A DNA stretch of 64,000 nucleotides, from contig JBMFIM010000001.1 of NCBI GenBank assembly GCA_049976305.1, positions 25,712-89,711 on the forward strand, read 5' to 3'. The notes beneath the pieces were generated by a model that saw nothing but the letters and a program-made list of their open reading frames with translations, was not told where the DNA came from and did not search any database. Both the position numbers and the translations under genes were made by a program. Numbering within the stretch: position 1 is the first letter of the stretch; the number at the start of each line of letters is the position of its first letter. Shown in pieces: positions 5,178 through 57,458 of this stretch. The DNA comes from Candidatus Micrarchaeia archaeon. Lineage in GTDB: Archaea; Micrarchaeota; Micrarchaeia; Micrarchaeales; CABMGC01.

Positions 5178-5726
5178 ATGAGAATCCTTGTAATCAGCAA
5201 TGTGCCAAAGGCGTTGGATCAGGTTGTAGATTCGCTTAAAGGCCACAACATAGTGGCAAAGGAAATGCCTATGCAAACACAGGAGCTTGTAGATGCAGTT
5301 GCAAGTGAGCTTGGAAAAGGCTATGATGTATGCGTGGTTGTGGCAAAAGATCCCGTTGGTACAGGCATTGCGTTGAACAAGCTTTCCGGCGTTTTTGCTG
5401 CAGTTTGCAACAATCCCGAGGATGTAGGCTTGGGCAAGGCAAACAATGCCAATGTCTTCATACTTAAAAGCAAAAACGAGCAGAATCCTGAAATCATAAA
5501 TGCGATATCAGGCTTGGGCTACTCAAAGAGGTTCTTTTCCCTGCAGTTCCCAAAGTTTCAGCTTAGCCTAGGCAAGCAGCAAAGGCAGCAACAGACACAG
5601 CAGCCTCAGCAGACCAAAGCCAAACAGCAACAGGCACAGCAGGCAAGCAAAGATGAGGCAGAAGAGCAGAAAGGAGATGGGAAAGGAATACTTGGAAAGA
5701 TTAAAAACGCGCTAGGAATCGTTTGA
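5178..5726 (+). CDS. RpiB/LacA/LacB-fold protein, probably non-catalytic, with Q-rich tail
   Basis: VGTGIALNKLSGVFAAVCNNPEDVGLGKANNANVFIL aligns with the RpiB block iCGTGiGmsIaANK..r.HNdaNvL. The catalytic Cys (here V) and His (here N) are both replaced. The C-terminal ~50 aa are Q/K/E low complexity. Confidence 0.5.
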   Translation: MRILVISNVPKALDQVVDSLKGHNIVAKEMPMQTQELVDAVASELGKGYDVCVVVAKDPVGTGIALNKLSGVFAAVCNNPEDVGLGKANNANVFILKSKNEQNPEIINAISGLGYSKRFFSLQFPKFQLSLGKQQRQQQTQQPQQTKAKQQQAQQASKDEAEEQKGDGKGILGKIKNALGIV

Positions 5727-16193: not shown

Positions 16194-18824
16194 TTGCCTA
16201 GCGTTGCAGGCTCTACCGAAGATGCTATAAATAATGCTGCATCTGCAGAAAAAACGTCTGTATTTCTTGTAGGCGAAGCTGGCGGCGGACTAATTTGGTT
16301 TGACAAGGACAATTGGATTGGCCTATACCATATTTTGAAAGAGAGAATATTGGCAAAGAATGCACCGGCCGCGATAATTTTCCATGGCGAGATACTGCCT
16401 GCTTTGCCAAAATATATAACAAAAGGTGGTTACAGTAAGAGCCAACCTCTGCAAGAAGACATAAACAGCCTGGACCTGGCAGTAGTGCAGGTAAAGCCAC
16501 ACTTATCAAGGATAGCAAAGCTGGCAAAAGAGGAAGGAATTGAACTGTACTACGTAATGGGCCCAAGCGACAGAGACAATATTGCCCGAGAACACGACAT
16601 GCTAGTGAGAATTTATACCAACTCTCCGAAAGACTTACTACAAATGATTGTAAGTATAAGGGAAAAAATTAGAGCGAATAACAAAATAATCGAGACTACA
16701 GAAAAAATAATGAAAAAGGAGCTTGAAAAAACCACACAGAACACGAGCAAAATCCAAAACATGCAAGAAAAGATTAGGCAGCTAAAAGAGGAAAACGAAG
16801 ATTTTGAGAAGCTTGATCAGCTTTATATCAAGCTTGTAGAACTATGGCTAGAAGAACATCCGGGCGAAGCTGAACAAGATAAATCTTTGAACCCTGAAGA
16901 GAAAGGTGACATCTCTAGGCTTGTCAACGAAATTAGAGGAAGAGGCATCGAGAAAAGTGAAATAGAGAAGAAAATAGAGGAACTGACTAGGGAGCTGGAG
17001 AAAACAGACAAAGACAAAGAGCCTGAAAAATACAAGCAGCTAGATGAAGAAATAAAAAAGCTCAACAACGAGCTAAAGAAAGGAACGTACAAAGACATTA
17101 GAAAAACTAAGCAGAAAGCTGAAGAAGGCGTATTCAAAAGGGAGAGACCTGGAGAGCTTTATACAGGCCACTACGCGGGATCAAAAGAGCTAGATGCGCT
17201 TGCGTTTGAAATAGCCAATGCGTATATTGCGCTCAACATACGAAATGCGTTTGGAAGGAGAATAAATATACAAATACTTCCTGAGCTGGTAAATGATATA
17301 GCTATAAAAGGGCACGCTTTTAGAGTCTCTGACTTGCCTTCCGAAGCATCAAGAGAGTATCTTTCTGTACAGAACTATTTCAAGGCTCTAGTGCAAGGGC
17401 TAACAGGCACGACAATAGTCACTATGGCGCACACAACTTCTTACCATGTTGATACAGTTCCACCATACAATGATGTAAGGAAAAATACGGGAGTAGTATA
17501 TGAGGTTGCGGTGCCGCCAATTATAGACGGAGAAAAAGTCAAAGATGCTTGGAGATCTGGCATTAATACCCCGCTTACAAAAGCCGTAAAGAAAGGCAAA
17601 GGAGTAACTACAGGATTTGTAGAGGTTACTTTTGACAGTAATGGCGTAAAGACAACATATTATTCATATGAATTCTTGCATCAGAAGGCAGGTGAAGAAT
17701 ACAATATACAAAGAGAGATTTTGAACAAATTGCTGAGGGGCAATGGCAACAATATTACAGAAAAGCCTAGCATAGAAGACAAAATCCAGATCCATAACAA
17801 GTTGCCTGAAGAGATGAATAAGCGCCTGATCCAATTGGCCAAAAAATATTTCCCGGCCGCACTGGCGTTACCCAGTCATGAGCAGGGAGAAACGCGCCGC
17901 TTGGATGTTTTGATGGTAAATGATACGCACATCGGCACTGCTGGCTATGGTGAAATTACTACTCGCCGCATGCTCGATGCCCTGGCTAAAAAACTAAAGG
18001 AAATGGGGTTTAGCATTGGCCTACTTTTCCTTGGAGGGGACAACATCGAAGGCGCCTATAAGGCTATAAAATATGAGAAGTACGAAGGGCGTGACATACG
18101 TGGTATATATCAGCTGAAAGGCGGCGCCCTAAGGATTAAATACGAAGCTTGGTTGCAAGAGCATCAGCCCATACCGAGCACGAATGACCAAATCGCAGAG
18201 CTAGTGAACAACATAAAGCCATTGCTAAGATCTGCTAAAACAATACTGCTTGTTTCGGGCCAACACACTAACAAGACCTACCCTGACAAAACAATAGATG
18301 AAGCCACTGCAATAAGGGATGCGTTGTTGCCTATTGCTTCTAAATACGGCGTACGCGAAAAAGACATCATTGCAGTGCCAGGCGGAGACAAAGGAGTTGG
18401 AGCGGTAAGACTTGACGATGGTACTACCATTTTTGTCGCACATAGTTTGCCTAACGGGTTACGATTTCCCAACGAAACAGTATTGGCGCTAGGTGCGGAT
18501 AAGCATCAGCACATAGTTGATGTAGAAACCGACCATGGCGGGCATATAATTGTAAAAACAACGGGCGCTTCTTCTTCGCCGATTACCCACTTTGTTAACC
18601 AGATAGGCATATCAACAAGTCAGTCAATGAGGGGCTTTACTACCGTTTCTGCAGAGTACGGAAACAGAACTCACATACTTCATAAGCTTGAAACATACTT
18701 CATATCACTAGACGACCTGATGCCATTAATAAGAAAAGGATTAGAAAGAGATTTTGGCAAAGAAGACCTGGAAAGGCTTGAAAAATTTGAAGAAGGGCGG
18801 ATTACAATAAAAGCAAGCAGTTAA
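16194..18824 (+). CDS. Large orphan protein: degenerate N-terminal and better-preserved C-terminal metallophosphoesterase-like modules with a central K/E coiled coil
   Basis: The TTG start is preceded by GAGGTGGGGAG. The C-terminal module has NDTHIG (~17922), GGDNIEG (~18033), SGQHTN (~18255) and DKHQH (~18498), which resemble MPE motifs I, II, III and V. The N-terminal module has the same spacing with substituted residues (VGEAGGG, FHGEIL, MGPSDRD). About 180 aa of heptad-like K/E sequence span ~16640-17190. Confidence 0.6.
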   Translation: MPSVAGSTEDAINNAASAEKTSVFLVGEAGGGLIWFDKDNWIGLYHILKERILAKNAPAAIIFHGEILPALPKYITKGGYSKSQPLQEDINSLDLAVVQVKPHLSRIAKLAKEEGIELYYVMGPSDRDNIAREHDMLVRIYTNSPKDLLQMIVSIREKIRANNKIIETTEKIMKKELEKTTQNTSKIQNMQEKIRQLKEENEDFEKLDQLYIKLVELWLEEHPGEAEQDKSLNPEEKGDISRLVNEIRGRGIEKSEIEKKIEELTRELEKTDKDKEPEKYKQLDEEIKKLNNELKKGTYKDIRKTKQKAEEGVFKRERPGELYTGHYAGSKELDALAFEIANAYIALNIRNAFGRRINIQILPELVNDIAIKGHAFRVSDLPSEASREYLSVQNYFKALVQGLTGTTIVTMAHTTSYHVDTVPPYNDVRKNTGVVYEVAVPPIIDGEKVKDAWRSGINTPLTKAVKKGKGVTTGFVEVTFDSNGVKTTYYSYEFLHQKAGEEYNIQREILNKLLRGNGNNITEKPSIEDKIQIHNKLPEEMNKRLIQLAKKYFPAALALPSHEQGETRRLDVLMVNDTHIGTAGYGEITTRRMLDALAKKLKEMGFSIGLLFLGGDNIEGAYKAIKYEKYEGRDIRGIYQLKGGALRIKYEAWLQEHQPIPSTNDQIAELVNNIKPLLRSAKTILLVSGQHTNKTYPDKTIDEATAIRDALLPIASKYGVREKDIIAVPGGDKGVGAVRLDDGTTIFVAHSLPNGLRFPNETVLALGADKHQHIVDVETDHGGHIIVKTTGASSSPITHFVNQIGISTSQSMRGFTTVSAEYGNRTHILHKLETYFISLDDLMPLIRKGLERDFGKEDLERLEKFEEGRITIKASS

Positions 18825-25729: not shown

Positions 25730-27262
25730 TGTATGCAAGACTTAAAATGGTTTTCTAAATTCACAAAACAGACGCTTAGTTCAGAAGAAATGAAAGTAGT
25801 GGAACTTAATGCTGAGAATCTGGGAATTACTGAGTTGCAAATGATGGAAAGCGCAGGCAAAGCAGTGGCAGACTTCGTAGAACAGCATTTTAAAGACAGG
25901 AAAAACCTACTTGTGCTATGCGGCAGCGGCAATAATGGTGGCGATGGCTTTGTAACTGCGAGATACCTTAGCAAAAACCATAATGTTGTAGTTGGGATCG
26001 CTGGTGGTAGGGAGAAGATAAAAGGGGCTTCTTCCCTTATAAACCTGAAAGCGCTCGAAGCTTGCGGAGTGGAACTAGTAGAAAATGTAGAATATGAACT
26101 TAGAACGCGGCTTGACCATGCAGACTTAGTAGTTGACGCTTTGGTAGGGACAGGATTCCACGGTTCGCTGAGAAGCCCTCTAAAAGAGATAGCTAGAATG
26201 TTAAACAATTCGAAAAAAGAGGTAGTGGCGATAGACCTTCCATCTGGGCTCGACGCCACAACTGGATATGAGAAAGAAGCGGTAAAGGCTACATATACAG
26301 TAACATTCCATAAAATGAAAGAAGGCCTGCTAAAATCTAAAAAGGCAGGGAAGATTGTTTGCTCAGATATAGGAATACCGCTAAAGGCTGAAGTTTTTAC
26401 CGGACCTGGAGATCTGTGGAGGGCAGTACCAAAGAAAGAGCTGTTTGATAATAAACTTAGCCATGGACGAGTCCTAATATTAGGAGGCAGTGAAGAGTTT
26501 TACGGCGCGCCTTCAATGGCTGCGATTGCTGCGTACAACGCGCTTGCTACTTTAAGGTCTGGTGCTGGCTATGTCGTATTAATGGTACCTAACTCTATTC
26601 TGAAAGTTGCTAGAGAAGTGTCTCCCAACTTAATAGTAAGAGCTGCAGGAGAAGACTATATTACAAACCTAAAAGCCATAAAACAAGAGATAGACAAAAG
26701 CAGCGTAATAGGAATTGGAATGGGAATAGGGCGTAGCATAGAGGTTCTTGAAGCCACAAAAGAAATCATAAAATACGCACTTGATAAAAACAAAAGGCTT
26801 GTAATAGATGCGGATGCACTCTACGCCTTGGGAAGAAGCCCCTTAAACAAGAATGCCGTACTCACTCCTCAGGAAAAGGAGTTTGAAACTCTTTATGGAA
26901 GAAAGCCTGAGGCAGAGATTGATAAAAGGGTAAGACAAGCAATCAAACTTGCCAACACATTAAATGCAGTAGTTGCATTGAAGGGTCATATTACTGTAAT
27001 AACCGATGGAAAGCAAGTAAAGCTTAATGAGACAGAAACTGCTGCACTGGCGACCATGGGAACCGGAGATGTGTTAACAGGTATTATTGCAGGTTTTGCA
27101 ACTAATAACGCTCAATCAATGTTCAACATTACAGCAGGAGCCATATATCTCCATGGAAGAATTGGAGATGTATTAGCAAAAGAGAAAGGGACGCACATAC
27201 TAGCTAGTGATCTTATAGATCAAATTCCACTCATAGCTGCGCAATATAGTGCTGTGGTTTGA
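25730..27262 (+). CDS. nnr: Bifunctional NAD(P)H-hydrate repair enzyme Nnr (YjeF_N epimerase + ADP-dependent dehydratase)
   Basis: The N-domain has LMESAG..CGSGNNGGDGFV. The C-domain has GGSEEFYGAP...GTGDVLTGIIAGF. The ORF opens at 25709, and ATG 25730 fits the TATA spacing. Confidence 0.9.
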   Translation, partial: CMQDLKWFSKFTKQTLSSEEMKVVELNAENLGITELQMMESAGKAVADFVEQHFKDRKNLLVLCGSGNNGGDGFVTARYLSKNHNVVVGIAGGREKIKGASSLINLKALEACGVELVENVEYELRTRLDHADLVVDALVGTGFHGSLRSPLKEIARMLNNSKKEVVAIDLPSGLDATTGYEKEAVKATYTVTFHKMKEGLLKSKKAGKIVCSDIGIPLKAEVFTGPGDLWRAVPKKELFDNKLSHGRVLILGGSEEFYGAPSMAAIAAYNALATLRSGAGYVVLMVPNSILKVAREVSPNLIVRAAGEDYITNLKAIKQEIDKSSVIGIGMGIGRSIEVLEATKEIIKYALDKNKRLVIDADALYALGRSPLNKNAVLTPQEKEFETLYGRKPEAEIDKRVRQAIKLANTLNAVVALKGHITVITDGKQVKLNETETAALATMGTGDVLTGIIAGFATNNAQSMFNITAGAIYLHGRIGDVLAKEKGTHILASDLIDQIPLIAAQYSAVV

Positions 27263-29148
27263 TGACTGCCCCTATTGCTTTAATGAAAACAGCATTCGTT
27301 GCGAGTCTAAAGAAGGCAATAGAAACTGCATTCAAAAGTCTTGAGGTAGAAGCGCTTAAAATCGAAGATACAATACTTATACCTGAAGAGGGATTCGGTG
27401 ATTTGAGCACATCTGTGTCTTTTAAGATTAGCAAAATAGTAAAAAGAAAACCCAGTGAGATAGCTAAAGAGATTATTGAAAAAATGGGAAAGCCTTCTTT
27501 CGCTAGTAAGCTAGAAGAAGCAAATGGTTACATAAACCTGTTTTTCAATGAAAGAGAGTATGCAAAGCTAGTCATAGAAACAGTAATTGAAGAAGGCGAT
27601 TTTTATGGCTCTGCTAACATAGGAGAAGACAAAAAGGTGCTTGTTGAGTATCCAAGTGTCAACCCAACAAAGCCTTGGCATATAGGCCACCTTAGAAATG
27701 CTCTCCTTGGCGATTCGATTGCTAACTTGCTAGAATTTTGCGGCTACAAGGTAGAAAGAGAAGACTATATAGACGACTTAGGCTTGCAAGTAGCTGAAAC
27801 GCTATGGGGAATAAAGCACTTAGGAAGCAGTCCAAAAGGCATGAAGTTTGACAGATTTCTCGGAGAACAGTATGTAGATGTAAATAAGAGGCTTTCAGAA
27901 AACCCAGAAGTTGAAAAGGAAATCGGCGAAATATTAAAGAAGATGGAAGCTGGCAACACCGAAGAGGCTCGAATGGCGAGAGAAGTGTCTGAGAGATGCG
28001 TAAGGGCGCAGTACCAGACCGCATATTCATATGGCCTTTACCATGACGTTCTTATATGGGAAAGCGATATTGTAAAAAGCAAGCTCCTAGATAAAGCCAA
28101 AATACTTGCGCAGGAAAAAGGGGTCATAGAAAACATTAACGAAGGAAAGTACAAGGGCTGCATTGTACTCGATTTGGAAAAGGTGAAAGGCGTTGCAAAG
28201 GAGTTTGAAAACCCGAAAGAAAAATACAAGGTGCTTATCAGAAGCAATGGTGTTGCAACGTACGCAATGAAGGATTTCGCATTCCACTTATGGAAGTTCG
28301 GCGAAATAAAGGCAGAGATAACCTTTGAACTTTTTGACAAACAGCCAAACGGAAAGCAGCTATATAGCAGCTCGCCAAATGGCAAATATATGGAATTTGG
28401 CAATGCAGATATGGTAATAAACATAATTGACAGAAGCCAGAGCCACGAACAGGCTTCAGTAAAGGCGCTGCTATCGCTTGTGGCCAGTGGCAACAAGCAA
28501 CTTATTCACCTTCCATATGGGGTCGTAAGGCTAGCTAGTGGCACATTAAGTGGGAGGCGAGGAGGCTGGCTTGGCGAGCGAGAATATACCGCTGACGAAT
28601 TACTCAAAGAAGCGACAATTAAAACTTTGGAGAAAACAAAAGAAAGCAGTAAGCTTGCACAAGGTGAGGTTGAAAAAACTGCAAAGGAAGTTGCGCTAGC
28701 GGCTATAAAATTTGAGTATTTGCGTGTTTCTCCTGAAAAGGACATTGTGTTCGATTGGGAAAGGGCTCTAAATCTTGAGGCGAATAGTGGGCCATATGTT
28801 CTTTATACTTATGCAAGGGCCAGCAGCATACTGGAAAAGGGCGGCTTTGAGCTAATGCCACCGAATGGAAAGGCTTATGAGTTTCTTACTAGGGAAGAAG
28901 ATTACGAGCTTGTAAAGCATATCGCCGTATTTCCAGAAGTAGTAGAAAGAGCATGCAAGGAATTGAAACCAAACCTTATTACAAACTACCTAATCGATAT
29001 TGCAACAATATTTAGCAAATTCTATGAGAAGATGCCAGTAATCAAGAGCGAAGCCAGGGAGTTAAGGCTCTCACTGGTATATGCAACCAAACAAGTTATA
29101 AAAAACGGCCTTGCCCTTCTCGGAGTACACGCCTTAGAAGCCCTTTAA
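27262..29148 (+). CDS. argS: Arginyl-tRNA synthetase
   Basis: It carries VEYPSVNPTKPWHIGHLRNALLGDSIANLL (HIGH) and an anticodon-binding C-terminus. GTGG + 4 nt precedes the ATG at 27262, which overlaps the nnr stop. Confidence 0.93.
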   Translation: MTAPIALMKTAFVASLKKAIETAFKSLEVEALKIEDTILIPEEGFGDLSTSVSFKISKIVKRKPSEIAKEIIEKMGKPSFASKLEEANGYINLFFNEREYAKLVIETVIEEGDFYGSANIGEDKKVLVEYPSVNPTKPWHIGHLRNALLGDSIANLLEFCGYKVEREDYIDDLGLQVAETLWGIKHLGSSPKGMKFDRFLGEQYVDVNKRLSENPEVEKEIGEILKKMEAGNTEEARMAREVSERCVRAQYQTAYSYGLYHDVLIWESDIVKSKLLDKAKILAQEKGVIENINEGKYKGCIVLDLEKVKGVAKEFENPKEKYKVLIRSNGVATYAMKDFAFHLWKFGEIKAEITFELFDKQPNGKQLYSSSPNGKYMEFGNADMVINIIDRSQSHEQASVKALLSLVASGNKQLIHLPYGVVRLASGTLSGRRGGWLGEREYTADELLKEATIKTLEKTKESSKLAQGEVEKTAKEVALAAIKFEYLRVSPEKDIVFDWERALNLEANSGPYVLYTYARASSILEKGGFELMPPNGKAYEFLTREEDYELVKHIAVFPEVVERACKELKPNLITNYLIDIATIFSKFYEKMPVIKSEARELRLSLVYATKQVIKNGLALLGVHALEAL

Positions 29149-30037: not shown

Positions 30038-30098
30038 CTTTACCTTTACAAATTTACTTTGCTTATGTTTATATACTTTTAATTGTTAAAATACTAAA

Positions 30099-30193
30099 GG
30101 GCCCGTAGCTCAGCTTGGACAGAGCGGCGCCGTCCTAAGGCGAAGGCCGTGGGTTCAAAATAAGCTTGGCTTATGACAATCCCACCGGGCCCG
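30099..30193 (+). tRNA. tRNA-Arg (CCU) with a 20-nt intron in the T-loop (59/60; intron 30160..30179)
   Basis: It folds as GGGCCCG-TA-GCTC-AGCTTGGACA-GAGC-G-GCGCC-GTCCTAA-GGCGA-AGGCC-GTGGG-TTCAAA[ATAAGCTTGGCTTATGACAA]T-CCCAC-CGGGCCC-G. Removing 20 nt gives a standard 75-nt cloverleaf. The insert folds as a bulge-helix-bulge (see finding). Position 32 is G and 27:43 is G.A. Confidence 0.8.
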
Positions 30194-30204
30194 ATGGCGA
30201 TAAG

Positions 30205-31218
30205 ATGACAAAAGCCGAAGAACCTAAAGAACCTAAGGTAGTAGTAAAGCCTGTAGGCGGGCTTGGCGGCTTAGACCAGATTCACGTAGCGTTAATAATA
30301 CTAGTTTGTGTGCTAGTGGCGCTTGTTGTTGTGCTGGCATACTACAGGCCTACAGCAATTACTGTAGTAAACAACACTACAGCAGCTAAACCCATGCACA
30401 CTTCCTCGGAAATGCTAAATCTTACAGAAAGGTTGCTTGCAAGCTATAACAATCTCAACTCCTCACTAAACCTTCTGCCGTATATAACCAACATCAGCGC
30501 TGCTAACATAACCTACATATCGAGCATTAAATCGTGGCTCATAAGGGTTCCTGCAGCAAATCCAGCAACAAACGTTTCTTTCTACGTTACCTTTTTGATA
30601 AATGACTCCAATACATCAAAAGTGCTGCCACTTATACAGACGGTGCTGCCCGCAAAACTTTCACAAAACAAAGTAGTGGCAAAGGGAGTGGTTCAATTAT
30701 ACAACCATTATCCGTGCAACAAGCAGCCTATGCCGGTTTATTGGTTTATAGATCCATATGCACCCGGTGGCATAAAGAGCTTAAACTATGCAGTACAACT
30801 GCAGAATATGCTAAAGGGCAAAGTCAATGTGACAATAAAGATATTCAGCACGCAGGCGACACAGGCAATAGCAAGCCAGTATGGCATAGCAAATGCGCAG
30901 CTTCTAGGCAAGTACATATTCTGTGCTTCGCTTCAGCCAAATTTTGAAAAGTTTGCAAACATTTTGAGCTCTCTGTTTGCAGGCTCTTTCATGGGCCAGA
31001 TAGAGCTCAGCAACATAGCCAACGAATCTGGGCTCAATTATTCTGAATTAAGCTCTTGTATAGGCACCTCTCAACCAATAATCAACAATCAGGCTCTTCT
31101 AGCAAGCTACTACAACATTACTCAAGTGCCAAGCGTTATCGTTGACTGCAACCTTATGACTTTGCCTCAGACCGCTTACGATGCTGTCTGCTTTGCAAAT
31201 AGCACACTTTGCAGGTGA
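30205..31218 (+). CDS. Membrane-anchored extracellular DsbA/thioredoxin-like-fold protein lacking the CxxC site
   Basis: The track start TTG 30166 overlaps the tRNA, so I use ATG 30205 (MTKAEEPKEPK). One TM helix is followed by about 12 sequons. MPVYWFIDPYAPGG...GKYIFCASLQ...NITQVPSVIV follows the DsbA-like (Thioredoxin_4) pattern, with APGG where CPxC is expected. Confidence 0.45.
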   Translation: MTKAEEPKEPKVVVKPVGGLGGLDQIHVALIILVCVLVALVVVLAYYRPTAITVVNNTTAAKPMHTSSEMLNLTERLLASYNNLNSSLNLLPYITNISAANITYISSIKSWLIRVPAANPATNVSFYVTFLINDSNTSKVLPLIQTVLPAKLSQNKVVAKGVVQLYNHYPCNKQPMPVYWFIDPYAPGGIKSLNYAVQLQNMLKGKVNVTIKIFSTQATQAIASQYGIANAQLLGKYIFCASLQPNFEKFANILSSLFAGSFMGQIELSNIANESGLNYSELSSCIGTSQPIINNQALLASYYNITQVPSVIVDCNLMTLPQTAYDAVCFANSTLCR

Positions 31219-34341: not shown

Positions 34342-34458
34342 GCCAGGATGGCGGAATCCGGTAACGCGTACGCCTGGAGGCTCTCCCAGGTAGCGTATGG
34401 CTCTTCCGAGCCTTCTGGGTTCAAAACAGCTTCTGCTGGGAAAATCCCAGTCCTGGCG
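34342..34458 (+). tRNA. tRNA-Ser (GGA), type II, with two introns (12 nt at 37/38, 34380..34391; 19 nt at 59/60, 34426..34444)
   Basis: It folds as GCCAGGA-TG-GCGG-AATCCGGTA-ACGC-G-TACGC-CTGGAG[GCTCTCCCAGGT]A-GCGTA-T-GGCTC-TTCC-GAGCC-TTC-CTGGG-TTCAAA[ACAGCTTCTGCTGGGAAAA]T-CCCAG-TCCTGGC-G. It has a long variable arm, and the mature length is 86 nt. Confidence 0.8.
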
Positions 34459-34491
34459 TTATTTAGATGTTTTATAGGAAAAGGGATACGC

Positions 34492-34827
34492 ATGGAATCT
34501 AAAATAATAGCGGCGACAATAGATGACAGTTCGATGTTAACCGGAATAGGAAGGGCGCAAAGGATTGCAATAATTGAGGTTAAAGAAGGCAAAATAGCAA
34601 AAATCGAGGAGTTCGAAGTAAAATGGGACGAGGCCCATGAGAAAGAAGAAGAGGGTCTTCACCATGCCAACATTGCCAGATTTCTAAGATCGCACAACGT
34701 TACAGACATAATTGCATTCGGAGCAGGGCCTGATATGCAGCGCATGATAGAAAGGCTTGGCATCAGGCTTCATTTCTCTTCTGGAGATTATCAAGAAGCT
34801 GCAAAAAGGCTTATAGAAAGTGCCTAA
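34492..34827 (+). CDS. NifX/NifB-C-terminal-like (dinitrogenase FeMo-cofactor biosynthesis domain) protein
   Basis: The sequence is MESKIIAATIDDSSMLTGIGRAQRIAIIEV...VTDIIAFGAGPDMQRMIERLGIRL. The track ORF start at 34348 lies inside the tRNA and was rejected. Confidence 0.55.
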   Translation: MESKIIAATIDDSSMLTGIGRAQRIAIIEVKEGKIAKIEEFEVKWDEAHEKEEEGLHHANIARFLRSHNVTDIIAFGAGPDMQRMIERLGIRLHFSSGDYQEAAKRLIESA

Positions 34828-46384: not shown

Positions 46385-47664
46385 GTGCGGGGCTACTACG
46401 AAACAGAGCACATAACTAAATTCGTCTGGCTTGTCACCTTATTCTCCTCCATGGGCATGTTCATGGATGGCTACGTGCTTACTATATTCTCCGCTGCCAC
46501 TGCTTTGCCTACTGGTCTGAAATATGTTTTCAAGCCGACAAGTTTGGAATGGGGACTCATGGGTGCGGCTCCACTCATCGGCATGCTGCTTGGGGCTGCT
46601 ACTTTTGGCAACATCGCTGACAGGATAGGCAGAAGAAAAATGTACATTTATGACCTTAGTGCAACTGCGTTGTTCTTGCTTCTCACTGCATTTTCGACCA
46701 ACTGGCTTGAGTTTTTCCTGCTGCAGCTTGGCGCTGGCGTAGGCATTGGCGCAGATTATCCGATAAGCTCCTCTATCCAGGCAGAGTTTTCACCTACGAA
46801 AAGGCGCGGCATGCTGCTTGTCCTCAACATTTTCATGTAGACTTATAGGCAGCATTGTTTTCCTGCTTGTCTCGATTCCCCTCTATTTTGTAGGCAATGT
46901 TGCATGGAAGCTAATGTATGGCACTGCTGCAATAATTCCCTTGATTGTTGTAGCTGCAAGGAACACAATTCCAGAATCGCCATGGTGGCTCAAGCTTAAA
47001 GAAAAGAAAAAGGAGTTTGAAAAATCAGTTTCGATAATTGCGGCCTCAGTCGGCGTGCTGCCGAGTAGGCTTGCGGAAAGCATAAAGCTGGAAAAGGGCA
47101 AAAGCAGCAGCATGGTTTGCTTATGATGTTGCTAGCTATGGCGTTTGGACCTTCACACCGTCTATTTTCATAAGCACAGGAAGCAGCTATGTTGGGTCGA
47201 TTATTGCTGACTTGCTCGAAGAAGTGCCTGTCTTTATAGGATTTGCTTTATGCGTAACTCTTGTTGATAGAGTAGGTAGGGAGCCGCTCGAAGAATATGG
47301 ATTCTTGCTGGCAGGCATATCCTTGCTAATCTTTGCAGCATATGCGCATTTTACAAAGGAAACGCCATTTGCTATTGCCTTCGTAGGCTTTGCGCTTATG
47401 CACGTATTCCACAACCTAGGGCCTACAAACCTCACATATACATATCCAGCAGAGGCGTATCCTACGAGGCTTAGGGCTACGGCACATGGCTTTGCTACCT
47501 CGTTTAGCAGAATCGGAGGCATTCTTGGCATAGTGGCTTTTCCAGTGCTTCTCAATTCCCTCAGCCTATCGGCGGCGCTAGTGATGTTTGCAGCCTTTGA
47601 ATTCCTGGGATTCACAGTTACTGTTTTGTGGGCGCCTGAAACGAAGAAAAAAGCCCTTTTTTAA
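46385..47664 (+). pseudogene. MFS transporter (sugar-porter-like) broken by two +1 frame shifts
   Basis: Three consecutive track ORFs (46385..46840, 46818..47126, 47212..47664) lie in frames 2, 0 and 1. Together they read as one ~425-aa MFS protein, with GNIADRIGRRKMY, EFSPTKRRGML, IPESPWWL and YPAEAYPTRLRATAHGF. The junctions fall near 46831-46840 and 47086-47105. Confidence 0.7.
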
Positions 47665-52363: not shown

Positions 52364-52387
52364 AAAACCACCTAATATGTGTTATTC

Positions 52388-52939
52388 ATGAGGCTTTTTA
52401 TAGGAATCGATGTGCCTGAAGAAGTAAAAGAAAAGGCAGAGCTCCTTGAGCAAGAAATAAAATCTTTGCAGGGATCTTTCACTTTTGTAAAAAAAGAAGC
52501 CATGCACATAACCCTCAACTTCATAGGGGAAGTCGATGAGCAAAAGACACAGGCAGCAGTAAAAGCCTTGAGCAGCATTTCAATAGCCAAGTTTCAGGTT
52601 TCTTTTGAGGGCGTTTCCTATTTCTCGCCAAGGTTCATAAAAGTCGTCTATCTGGGAATAAGCAAAGGAGTACAGGAACTGAAAAATGCCTTTTCAATTA
52701 TAGGAAACGCGCTTGCAGAAGCAGGTGTGCCATACGAGCACGACCTTCCTTACGTCCCGCATTTTACCATAGCTAGGGTGAAATACATAAAAGACAGGAC
52801 CCCACTTCTCAATCTTATCGAGAAGCACAAGGGCGAAAAATTTGGAGACTTCGAAGTAGAAGCCATAGCGCTAAAGAAAAGCACCCTTACCCCTGACGGG
52901 CCTGTGTATGAAAACTTGCACGAACTCAAACTTTTGTAG
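52388..52939 (+). CDS. thpR: 2H phosphoesterase, LigT/ThpR family (RNA 2',3'-cyclic phosphodiesterase / 2'-5' RNA ligase)
   Basis: It begins MRLFIGIDVP and has two HxT/S motifs (HITLNF and HFTIARV). The ORF opens at 52379. Confidence 0.85.
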   Translation: MRLFIGIDVPEEVKEKAELLEQEIKSLQGSFTFVKKEAMHITLNFIGEVDEQKTQAAVKALSSISIAKFQVSFEGVSYFSPRFIKVVYLGISKGVQELKNAFSIIGNALAEAGVPYEHDLPYVPHFTIARVKYIKDRTPLLNLIEKHKGEKFGDFEVEAIALKKSTLTPDGPVYENLHELKLL

Positions 52940-53582: not shown

Positions 53583-54155
53583 ATGCAAATTAAGTTTTTA
53601 GAGAACAGCCCCTTTGCAGTGAGGTTTACTATTAGTGGCATAAACGCTGCGTTTGCGAACGCAATAAGAAGGATAGCCATGGGAAGTGTGCCCACTTTTG
53701 CCATAGACACAGTTACCTTTTACGAGAATACAAGCGCAATGTTTGACGAATATATAGCTCACAGGATAGGCCTTATACCTATCATAACGCCTTCGAAGGG
53801 TTATGACGAAAAGGACAAGATACTGTTCTCGCTAGAGGCAGAAGGCCCTAAGACTGTTTATTCAAGCGAGCTAAAGAGCGAGGACAAGAAAGTAAAGGTT
53901 GCCAATGAGAAAATTCCAATCATAAAGCTTGCAGAAGGCCAGCACATACGGCTGGAAGGCACAGCAGTCATGGGCACAGGCTCAAAACATGCAAAGTTTC
54001 AGCCAGGCTACATTACCTACAAGCAGCTCGGTGATGACGAGTTTGAGTTTTACATAGAAACTTTTGGCCAGATGCCTGCAGGCGAAATACTTGAGAAAGC
54101 ACTGGCTGTGCTTGAAAAGCAGCTTAGCATTACCGAAGACGCGCTTAAAAAATAG
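53583..54155 (+). CDS. rpoD: DNA-directed RNA polymerase subunit D (Rpo3), short form
   Basis: It carries FANAIRRIAMGSVPTFAIDTVTFYENTSAMFDEYIAHRIGLIPI. At 190 aa it has no cysteine-rich Fe-S domain. Confidence 0.88.
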   Translation: MQIKFLENSPFAVRFTISGINAAFANAIRRIAMGSVPTFAIDTVTFYENTSAMFDEYIAHRIGLIPIITPSKGYDEKDKILFSLEAEGPKTVYSSELKSEDKKVKVANEKIPIIKLAEGQHIRLEGTAVMGTGSKHAKFQPGYITYKQLGDDEFEFYIETFGQMPAGEILEKALAVLEKQLSITEDALKK

Positions 54156-54254
54156 GCGGGGGTGGCAGAGCTTGGCCAAATGCGCAGGACTGAGGTCTTG
54201 CCGCAGAACTCCTGTGGTTTAGAACCTGCGTGAGTTCAAATCTCACCCCCCGCA
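54156..54254 (+). tRNA. tRNA-Leu (GAG), type II, with 13-nt intron at 37/38 (54196..54208)
   Basis: It folds as GCGGGGG-TG-GCA-GAGCTTGGCCAAA-TGC-G-CAGGA-CTGAGG[TCTTGCCGCAGAA]C-TCCTG-T-GGTT-TAG-AACC-TGC-GTGAG-TTCAAAT-CTCAC-CCCCCGC-A. Its first base directly follows the rpoD stop codon. Confidence 0.85.
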
Positions 54255-55528: not shown

Positions 55529-55614
55529 GGGGTCGTCTGCTAGCCTGGTAGGCTCTGCGCTTAGGGAGCGCATGACCCGAGAAAAATTCGGGAATTCAAA
55601 TCTCGGCGACCCCG
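55529..55614 (+). tRNA. tRNA-Pro with A34 anticodon (AGG) and a 13-nt intron at 53/54 (55582..55594)
   Basis: It folds as GGGGTCG-TC-TGCT-AGCCTGGTA-GGCT-C-TGCGC-TTAGGGA-GCGCA-TGAC-CCGAG[AAAAATTCGGGAA]TTCAAAT-CTCGG-CGACCCC-G. The D-stem has a U10.U25 mismatch, and G37 is present as in Pro tRNAs. The mature length is 73 nt. Confidence 0.65.
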
Positions 55615-57334: not shown

Positions 57335-57458
57335 AAGCATCAGCACTCAAGATCTTCATCACTTCTCAGGTTTATAGATCATCATGCAATAGTGCATAGC
57401 CACAAAAAGATATTTATTTATTCGCTCATATAAAAACTACTTCGTATCTGGTGTTTTT

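Follow-up and report, generated by a model that had tools for sequence, protein, structure and literature searches.

A tRNA-Arg(CCU) gene with a probable 20-nt T-loop intron at position 59/60 in a member of Micrarchaeota

Known T-loop introns and the tRNA-Arg(CCU) locus

Archaeal pre-tRNA introns are delimited by a motif known as bulge-helix-bulge (BHB), in which a helix of 4 base pairs (bp) is flanked by two 3-nucleotide (nt) bulges that bear the splice sites (PMC4090602). In canonical introns the first two anticodon nucleotides lie within this helix, and positions 53/54 and 59/60 are among the known non-canonical insertion sites (PMC4090602). The subject of this report is a tRNA-Arg(CCU) gene that appears to be interrupted by an intron at 59/60, in the T-loop; it resides in a 64,000-nt stretch of DNA from a Candidatus Micrarchaeia archaeon (contig JBMFIM010000001.1), the whole of which is referred to here as the window. 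Its closest described counterparts are found in Candidatus Micrarchaeum acidiphilum ARMAN-2, an organism with 56% of its tRNA genes disrupted (Fujishima et al. 2011, PMC3239211). The pre-tRNA-Cys(GCA) of that organism carries a 13-nt intron at 59/60 with a relaxed motif of the hBH type (h, B, H and h' denoting the outer helix, bulge, central helix and inner helix, respectively), and its pre-tRNA-Pro(GGG) carries two T-loop introns, at 53/54 and 59/60, with a motif described as strict (PMC3239211, Fig. 1C). When assayed in vitro, ARMAN-2's three-unit epsilon2 endonuclease cuts the 59/60 intron as well as a canonical one (PMC3239211), and later structures credit an ARMAN-specific loop with the broad specificity of this splicing endonuclease, EndA (PMC3488258, PMC12397907). 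Non-canonical introns also occur in Thermoproteales and other Crenarchaeota that possess an (alpha-beta)2 EndA (Sugahara 2008 and Fujishima 2010, via PMC4090602 and PMC4033280).

The elements of the tRNA-Arg(CCU) cloverleaf and their coordinates (Table 1) read as an earlier note, made from the sequence alone, had described them, with 27 nt between the two strands of the T-stem; CCA is not encoded at the 3' end. In-silico deletion of the 20 nt at 30160-30179 restores the T-loop TTCAAAT, as the note had proposed, and ARAGORN then calls a 75-nt tRNA-Arg(cct), the predicted exon junction being ...GGGUUCAAA joined to UCCCAC.... The check with tRNA-finding programs suggested at that time succeeds on this spliced sequence and fails on the unspliced locus, which ARAGORN calls neither by default nor with its anticodon-loop intron option. 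Likewise, the unspliced locus has no Rfam match at the gathering threshold, and at E<=10 it has only a truncated tRNA match of 21.2 bits (gathering score 29). A single-deletion scan of the window, which covered 1.8 million variants from 1130 acceptor-like pairs, returned only three loci, all of them coherent tRNAs. Because there is an A-run at the junction, deletions at 57/58, 58/59 and 59/60 are equivalent and all yield one mature sequence, and the 59/60 position is therefore assigned from the BHB structure.

In the precursor, the 5-bp T-stem corresponds to the outer helix h. Beyond it, the central helix H (UUCA/UGAC) comprises three Watson-Crick pairs and a U54.C apposition, and is followed by the bulges AA|A and AA|U and by the inner helix h' (UAAGC/GCUUA); each of these elements, already named in the note, recurs when the sequence is laid out in the BHB register. 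With about four positions in H and splice sites in bulges on opposite strands, this is a relaxed BHB. A strict hBHBh' motif has four canonical pairs in H, and because U54 faces C here, the geometry claimed originally is retained as relaxed and abandoned as strict. Cleavage is placed behind the second nucleotide in each bulge on the basis of the description of the motif (PMC4090602) together with general knowledge of the cleavage register. A single BHB register accommodates all eight introns examined in this work (five at 59/60, two at 37/38 and one at 53/54), and the 3' bulge AA|U is invariant in the five 59/60 introns. When that register is fixed, and at least 3 of 4 pairs in H plus at least 5 bp in h' are required, only 0.07-0.12% of shuffled introns or random 20-mers from the window match by chance.

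Taken together with the orthologues described below, these features indicate, with a probability of about 0.9, a functional tRNA-Arg(CCU) gene whose 20-nt 59/60 intron is removed by protein enzymes. In the proposed pathway, the 3' end of the intron, UGAC, would pair with the invariant U54-A57 and so extend the T-stem into a BHB, in which four stacked positions would be flanked by the AA|A and AA|U bulges on opposite strands and closed by the 5-bp intron hairpin. EndA, expected to be of the broad-specificity epsilon2 type, would cut within each bulge in the register given above, and an RtcB-type ligase would join the 61-nt and 14-nt exons to form the T-loop UUCAAAU. This mechanism is already published for ARMAN-2; what is new is its occurrence in a different tRNA and a different member of the phylum.

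Like ARMAN-2 pre-tRNA-Cys, for which cleavage by the epsilon2 EndA has been shown in vitro, the present locus combines the same phylum, the 59/60 bond and a short intron. It differs in that the tRNA is tRNA-Arg and the intron is 20 nt rather than 13 nt, with both bulges and a 5-bp inner helix, and one mismatch, in place of the hBH type; the tRNA-Cys of the window, in contrast, is intron-less. BHB introns in the T-loop are also common to ARMAN-2 pre-tRNA-Pro and the window, which has a 53/54 intron in tRNA-Pro and a 59/60 intron in tRNA-Ser, but the ARMAN-2 tRNA-Pro carries two introns with a strict motif, whereas tRNA-Arg carries a single one with U.C in its central helix. Thermoproteales and other Crenarchaeota are alike in the use of the 59/60 and 53/54 sites, in relaxed BHBs, in many disrupted tRNAs and in a patchy distribution; the phylum differs, as does the enzyme, which would be epsilon2 here and is (alpha-beta)2 in those groups. 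With the canonical 37/38 intron, of which tRNA-Leu(GAG) and tRNA-Ser(GGA) provide examples in the window, the intron shares the 3-4-3 logic and the cleavage register, but its central helix draws on T-loop bases 54-57 rather than on anticodon-loop bases 32-35.

To judge from its arginyl-tRNA synthetase (ArgRS), the host is a member of Micrarchaeota (DPANN), the phylum of ARMAN-2. It is assigned there because the best ArgRS matches are all from Micrarchaeota: the window protein is 92-94% identical to that of the metagenome-assembled genome (MAG) Candidatus Micrarchaeota archaeon KMA_Bin06 and 46-49% identical to those of five other Micrarchaeota/Micrarchaeales MAGs, with the next matches at about 30%. 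The earlier suggestion of an ARMAN-type host with known non-canonical introns thus agrees both with this assignment and with the published 59/60 introns and epsilon2 EndA (PMC3239211).

Orthologous genes and the weighing of alternatives

A total of 21 instances of tRNA-Arg(CCU) came from exon BLAST against syntenic loci, defined by ArgRS upstream and a homologous gene downstream, and from a single scan of metagenomes for a degenerate 5'-exon pattern; the genome collection was scanned by ArgRS synteny, so that the pattern search for the tRNA covered metagenome contigs only. Two loci, L007 and L087, have the same 20-nt intron in a gene identical at 95/95 positions, between flanks that are 89% identical. 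In L091, where the flanks are 73% and the downstream protein 75% identical, the exons are identical at 74/75 positions and the 20-nt intron differs at two: A4->G retains a G.U pair in h', and G9->U falls within the hairpin loop, while the U.C mismatch of helix H is kept. Three further loci (L006, L086 and L094) carry a 15-nt intron, AACTAACGTTGAAAA, at 59/60, with four Watson-Crick pairs in H (UUCA/UGAA) and the bulges AA|A and AA|U, and L005 carries a 14-nt intron, AAAACATTTGAAAA, at the same position with the same H and bulges. The inner helix is only 2 bp long in the introns of L005 and L006. Twelve other loci are intron-less and have the T-loop TTCAAAT; three of these were scored and reach 55.7-59.1 bits on the Rfam tRNA model. 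Thus, the insert differs among orthologues in length and sequence, but its splice-site bulges and T-loop-pairing strand are retained.

The intron shows 0/20 changes where the flanks are 89% identical and 2/20 where they are 73% identical, for which binomial p values computed by hand are about 0.1 and about 0.06; a constraint on the evolution of the 59/60 intron is therefore suggestive only. Two features of the exons that had earlier been called atypical, G32 and the G27.A43 mismatch, turn out to be conserved in the lineage and not defects: the BLAST-found orthologues L003, L005 and L006 all have G32, and their pair 27-43 is G.A or G.U and never Watson-Crick. G32 being fixed by the search pattern in the metagenome matches, its conservation is judged on those three loci.

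A variable insert with constant junctions, together with intron-less alleles, favors an endonuclease-spliced intron over both a pseudogene and a retained expansion. Were the locus a tRNA pseudogene, a 20-bp palindromic insertion would have inactivated the T-loop, and AGG would be read by a second CCU copy or by wobble of tRNA-Arg(UCU); rejection by standard detectors would fit such a history, and within this genome the search for another copy covered the window. That the gene has decayed is nonetheless very improbable, given that its four stems are intact and its exons nearly unchanged in L091 amid far more divergent flanks, that the insert keeps its BHB geometry through changes that are only compensating or neutral, and that two other lineages have different inserts at the identical bond with the same bulges. 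Moreover, AGG is the commonest Arg codon in the window open reading frames (ORFs) (377/798, 47%), and the metagenome copies of the window exon variant are all intron-bearing. Retention of the 20 nt, in an enlarged T-loop with an extra hairpin that would make an aberrant tRNA or a tRNA-like RNA of another role, is the least probable of the alternatives, even though the structure of predicted minimum free energy (MFE; -42 kcal/mol, z = -2.7) is a stable cloverleaf whose T-arm is extended by a hairpin. The insert would sequester U54-A57, which are needed for the tertiary contacts between T-loop and D-loop, and the intron-less orthologues point to the standard 7-nt loop as the functional state. 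Insert lengths of 20, 15, 14 and 0 nt alongside constant splice-site bulges are equally hard to reconcile with retention, and removal of a 59/60 insert in vitro has precedent in the phylum (PMC3239211).

A subtler variant concerns the bonds that EndA cuts. Removal through a bulge-helix-loop (BHL) or some other relaxed register, with cuts at 57/58 or 58/59, would yield the same mature sequence, because the A-run makes the three deletions equivalent; the imperfect helix H would suit it, and the 2-bp inner helix of L005 and L006 gives an hBH- or BHL-like structure comparable to that of ARMAN-2 pre-tRNA-Cys (PMC3239211). However, both the window sequence and L091 can adopt the 3-4-3 spacing with a 5-bp h' in full, and the cut after the second bulge nucleotide fits 8/8 introns, so that a different register is about as improbable as decay of the gene. 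A group I or group II self-splicing intron was rejected on size, the insert being only 20 nt against a catalytic core of hundreds of nt, and the Rfam search at E<=10 returned no match to an intron family. A remnant of an integration site was also considered and rejected: the window locus has no duplicated 3' part of the tRNA, unlike L084 (reverse strand, about 5473-5547), from another metagenome, where a tRNA-Arg(CCU) copy has GATTATA in place of the 5' acceptor strand GGGCCTG and is preceded by unrelated DNA. An integrated element seems to have left this partial duplicate at its border; an intact tRNA-Arg(CCU) is present in L090, which comes from the same sample.

Several considerations weigh against excision by splicing enzymes as proposed above. 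Transcription, cleavage at these particular bonds, ligation and the type of enzyme are all inferred, and a second, intron-less tRNA-Arg(CCU) could exist elsewhere in the genome. The U54.C apposition beside the 3' bulge makes the motif a relaxed one, for which a tolerant endonuclease would be needed. The RNAfold optimum of the T-arm is a 6-bp hairpin across a 6x6 internal loop (-12.5 kcal/mol), so that the BHB conformer, at -9.0 kcal/mol with U.C open, is predicted to be about 3.5 kcal/mol less stable; by these energies it is accessible though not the ground state, and BHB motifs are usually not the ground-state fold. In addition, no EndA or RtcB gene was found: Pfam searches of 47 window ORFs gave no tRNA_int_endo match, and phmmer with the M. 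jannaschii EndA, a query validated by its match to PDB 1a79 (E = 8e-111), gave nothing below E = 0.2 in six-frame ORFs of the window and of 24 related loci (182 kb; 246 kb in total). An epsilon2 EndA would be expected in this host from phylum membership only. The window does encode, at 52379-52939 (+), a LigT-like 2H phosphoesterase of the 2'-5' RNA ligase family (Pfam LigT_PEase, E = 1e-23), an enzyme of RNA-end chemistry and not an RtcB-type splicing ligase.

The history of the intron can be read in two ways, either as two gains or as one gain with at least two losses. A neighbor-joining tree of the downstream protein, which is rough and too crude to choose between these histories, places the 20-nt clade beside the intron-less loci L092 and L096 and apart from the 14/15-nt clade. 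Because intron-less lineages separate the two clades on this tree, one could envisage repeated gain at 59/60 in Micrarchaeota, reflecting active, site-directed intron mobility in DPANN with the T-loop UUCAAAU as a universal docking site, but this seems unlikely. Alignment of the Arg and Ser 59/60 introns of the window gives scores marginally above those of shuffles (p of about 0.003-0.02), a similarity that is confounded because both introns must pair with UUCA; transposition between the two genes is neither supported nor excluded, and with a resemblance this weak the window offers no clear counterpart to the similar, "transposed" introns of Thermoproteales.

Genomic context and other features of the window

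An A/T-rich, TATA-box-like sequence upstream of the tRNA-Arg(CCU) gene may serve as an archaeal promoter, and the orthologues, like most other tRNAs of the window, are preceded at comparable distances by A/T-rich boxes. No second tRNA-Arg was found within the window. Because AGG is the most used Arg codon, the cognate tRNA is unlikely to be dispensable and the gene is very probably functional. In L003, L005 and L006, too, the gene lies 1-4 kb from that for ArgRS.

Downstream of the tRNA lies an ORF that had previously been dismissed as an artefact, a verdict that holds for the extension beginning at TTG 30166, within the h' loop, but not for the gene itself, which is real and conserved. Its protein has homologues of 45-94% identity in twelve loci and a weak, partial match (36%) in L089. 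A Shine-Dalgarno-like GGCGAT (30196-30201) stands between the tRNA and ATG 30205, which is most likely the start of the gene. The product is a membrane-anchored protein of about 340 amino acids (aa). Since the homologous gene begins 11-18 nt after the tRNA in 12/13 loci, the two are probably co-transcribed. The same spacing between tRNA 3' end and ATG, with a Shine-Dalgarno-like GGTG or GGCG in between, is seen in L003, L005, L006, L091, L092, L094, L095 and L096. Conservation of this arrangement across Micrarchaeota with <50% protein identity points to a joint tRNA-mRNA transcript that RNase Z would separate, and the way in which the T-loop intron is spliced or processed could conceivably be linked to maturation of the mRNA.

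Other disrupted tRNA genes were sought with a purpose-built scanner, which looks for a T-stem, NTCRA, an oversized loop and an acceptor, splices in silico and checks the product by ARAGORN, and with the single-deletion scan. The window yielded eight tRNA genes, of which half are disrupted, namely Arg (59/60), Ser (37/38 and 59/60), Pro (53/54) and Leu (37/38), and those for Cys, Lys, Met and Gln are intact. The tRNA-Ser(GGA) gene is missed by ARAGORN, and by Rfam even at E<=10; it is also present in L087. In its 59/60 intron, H is UUCA/GGAA, with three Watson-Crick pairs and A.G. The gene overlaps a mechanically defined ORF (34348-34827) in which residue 67 is the first of the Pfam domain Nitro_FeMo-Co, for which reason the protein-coding gene probably starts near ATG 34493.

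The tRNA-Pro(AGG) gene has a weak D-stem (two Watson-Crick pairs and G.U) and G37, and resembles odd Pro tRNAs reported for ARMAN genomes. Archaeal tRNAs rarely have A34 in the anticodon; among the Pro codons of the window, CCT is used most often (41%). The ribosomal protein S2 gene follows, its likely ATG lying 9 nt beyond the end of the tRNA gene, whose 3' end is overlapped by a GGTGAT. The tRNA-Leu(GAG) gene begins at the base immediately after an rpoD/Rpb3-like ORF (53583-54155) and has an Rfam match only under permissive filters (45.7 bits). ARAGORN with the -i option types it as Phe(GAA), an assignment rejected here in favor of tRNA-Leu(GAG) on account of its long variable arm and G37.

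Elsewhere in the window, sub-threshold matches to archaeal C/D box small RNAs (snoPyro_CD, 29.6 bits; sR5, 28 bits) at 57337-57389 (-) may mark an intergenic C/D box guide RNA. A transporter of the major facilitator superfamily/sugar transporter type (46385-47664, +) is split into at least two ORFs, of which 46385-46840 matches the N-terminal and 47212-47664 the C-terminal part of Sugar_tr; it may be a pseudogene or reflect assembly frameshifts. Finally, an 876-aa ORF at 16194-18824 (+) is rich in charged, coiled-coil-like sequence and has no Pfam family at E<=0.01.

Table 1. Coordinates of the tRNA-Arg(CCU) gene, its predicted splicing elements and other features of the window
Feature	Position	Strand	Remarks
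ArgRS gene	27259-29148	+	Pfam DALR_1, tRNA-synt_1d, Arg_tRNA_synt_N; ~1 kb upstream of tRNA-Arg(CCU)
Putative promoter TTTATATA	30068-30075	+	TATA-box-like, read from sequence; 24-31 nt upstream of tRNA 5' end
tRNA-Arg(CCU) gene	30099-30193	+	95 nt
5' exon	30099-30159	+	61 nt, tRNA positions 1-59; acceptor 5' strand through T-loop TTCAAA (30154-30159)
Acceptor stem	30099-30105 / 30186-30192	+	GGGCCCG / CGGGCCC; discriminator G at 30193
D-stem		+	GCTC/GAGC
Anticodon stem		+	GCGCC/GGCGA; G27.A43 mismatch
Anticodon loop		+	GTCCTAA; G32 at 30132, anticodon CCT at 30134-30136
T-stem	30149-30153 / 30181-30185	+	GTGGG / CCCAC
Central helix H, 5' strand	30154-30157	+	U54 U55 C56 A57; partner 30174-30177
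5' bulge AA|A	30158-30160	+	Predicted 5' splice site between 30159 and 30160
Intron ATAAGCTTGGCTTATGACAA	30160-30179	+	20 nt, predicted at tRNA position 59/60
Inner hairpin h'	30161-30165 / 30169-30173	+	UAAGC / GCUUA, loop UUG 30166-30168; in RNAfold MFE
Central helix H, 3' strand	30174-30177	+	UGAC, C facing U54 at 30177; UGAA in L005/L006
3' bulge AA|U	30178-30180	+	Predicted 3' splice site between 30179 and 30180
3' exon	30180-30193	+	14 nt, tRNA positions 60-73: U60, T-stem and acceptor 3' strands, discriminator
Conserved downstream gene	30205-31218	+	337 aa, no Pfam family; ATG 11 nt past tRNA 3' end
tRNA-Ser(GGA)	34342-34458	+	Long variable arm; two introns
Ser 37/38 intron	34380-34391	+	12 nt
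Ser 59/60 intron ACAGCTTCTGCTGGGAAAA	34426-34444	+	19 nt; h' = CAGC/GCUG
tRNA-Leu(GAG)	54156-54254	+	13-nt canonical 37/38 intron (54196-54208)
tRNA-Pro(AGG)	55529-55614	+	13-nt 53/54 intron (55582-55594)

Implications for tRNA annotation and splicing in Micrarchaeota

The general picture of archaeal tRNA splicing is unchanged by this locus, and the gain lies mainly in annotation. Neither ARAGORN nor the Rfam tRNA model detects the tRNA for the most used Arg codon, and both also miss the two-intron tRNA-Ser and the tRNA-Pro of the window, so that a genome annotated in this way would seem to lack essential tRNAs. Beyond this, the alleles of 20, 15, 14 and 0 nt at one syntenic locus constitute a small natural series, in which constraint falls on the bulges and on the intron strand paired with the T-loop. 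The mismatch in the central helix is tolerated in this lineage, which fits a broad-specificity endonuclease.

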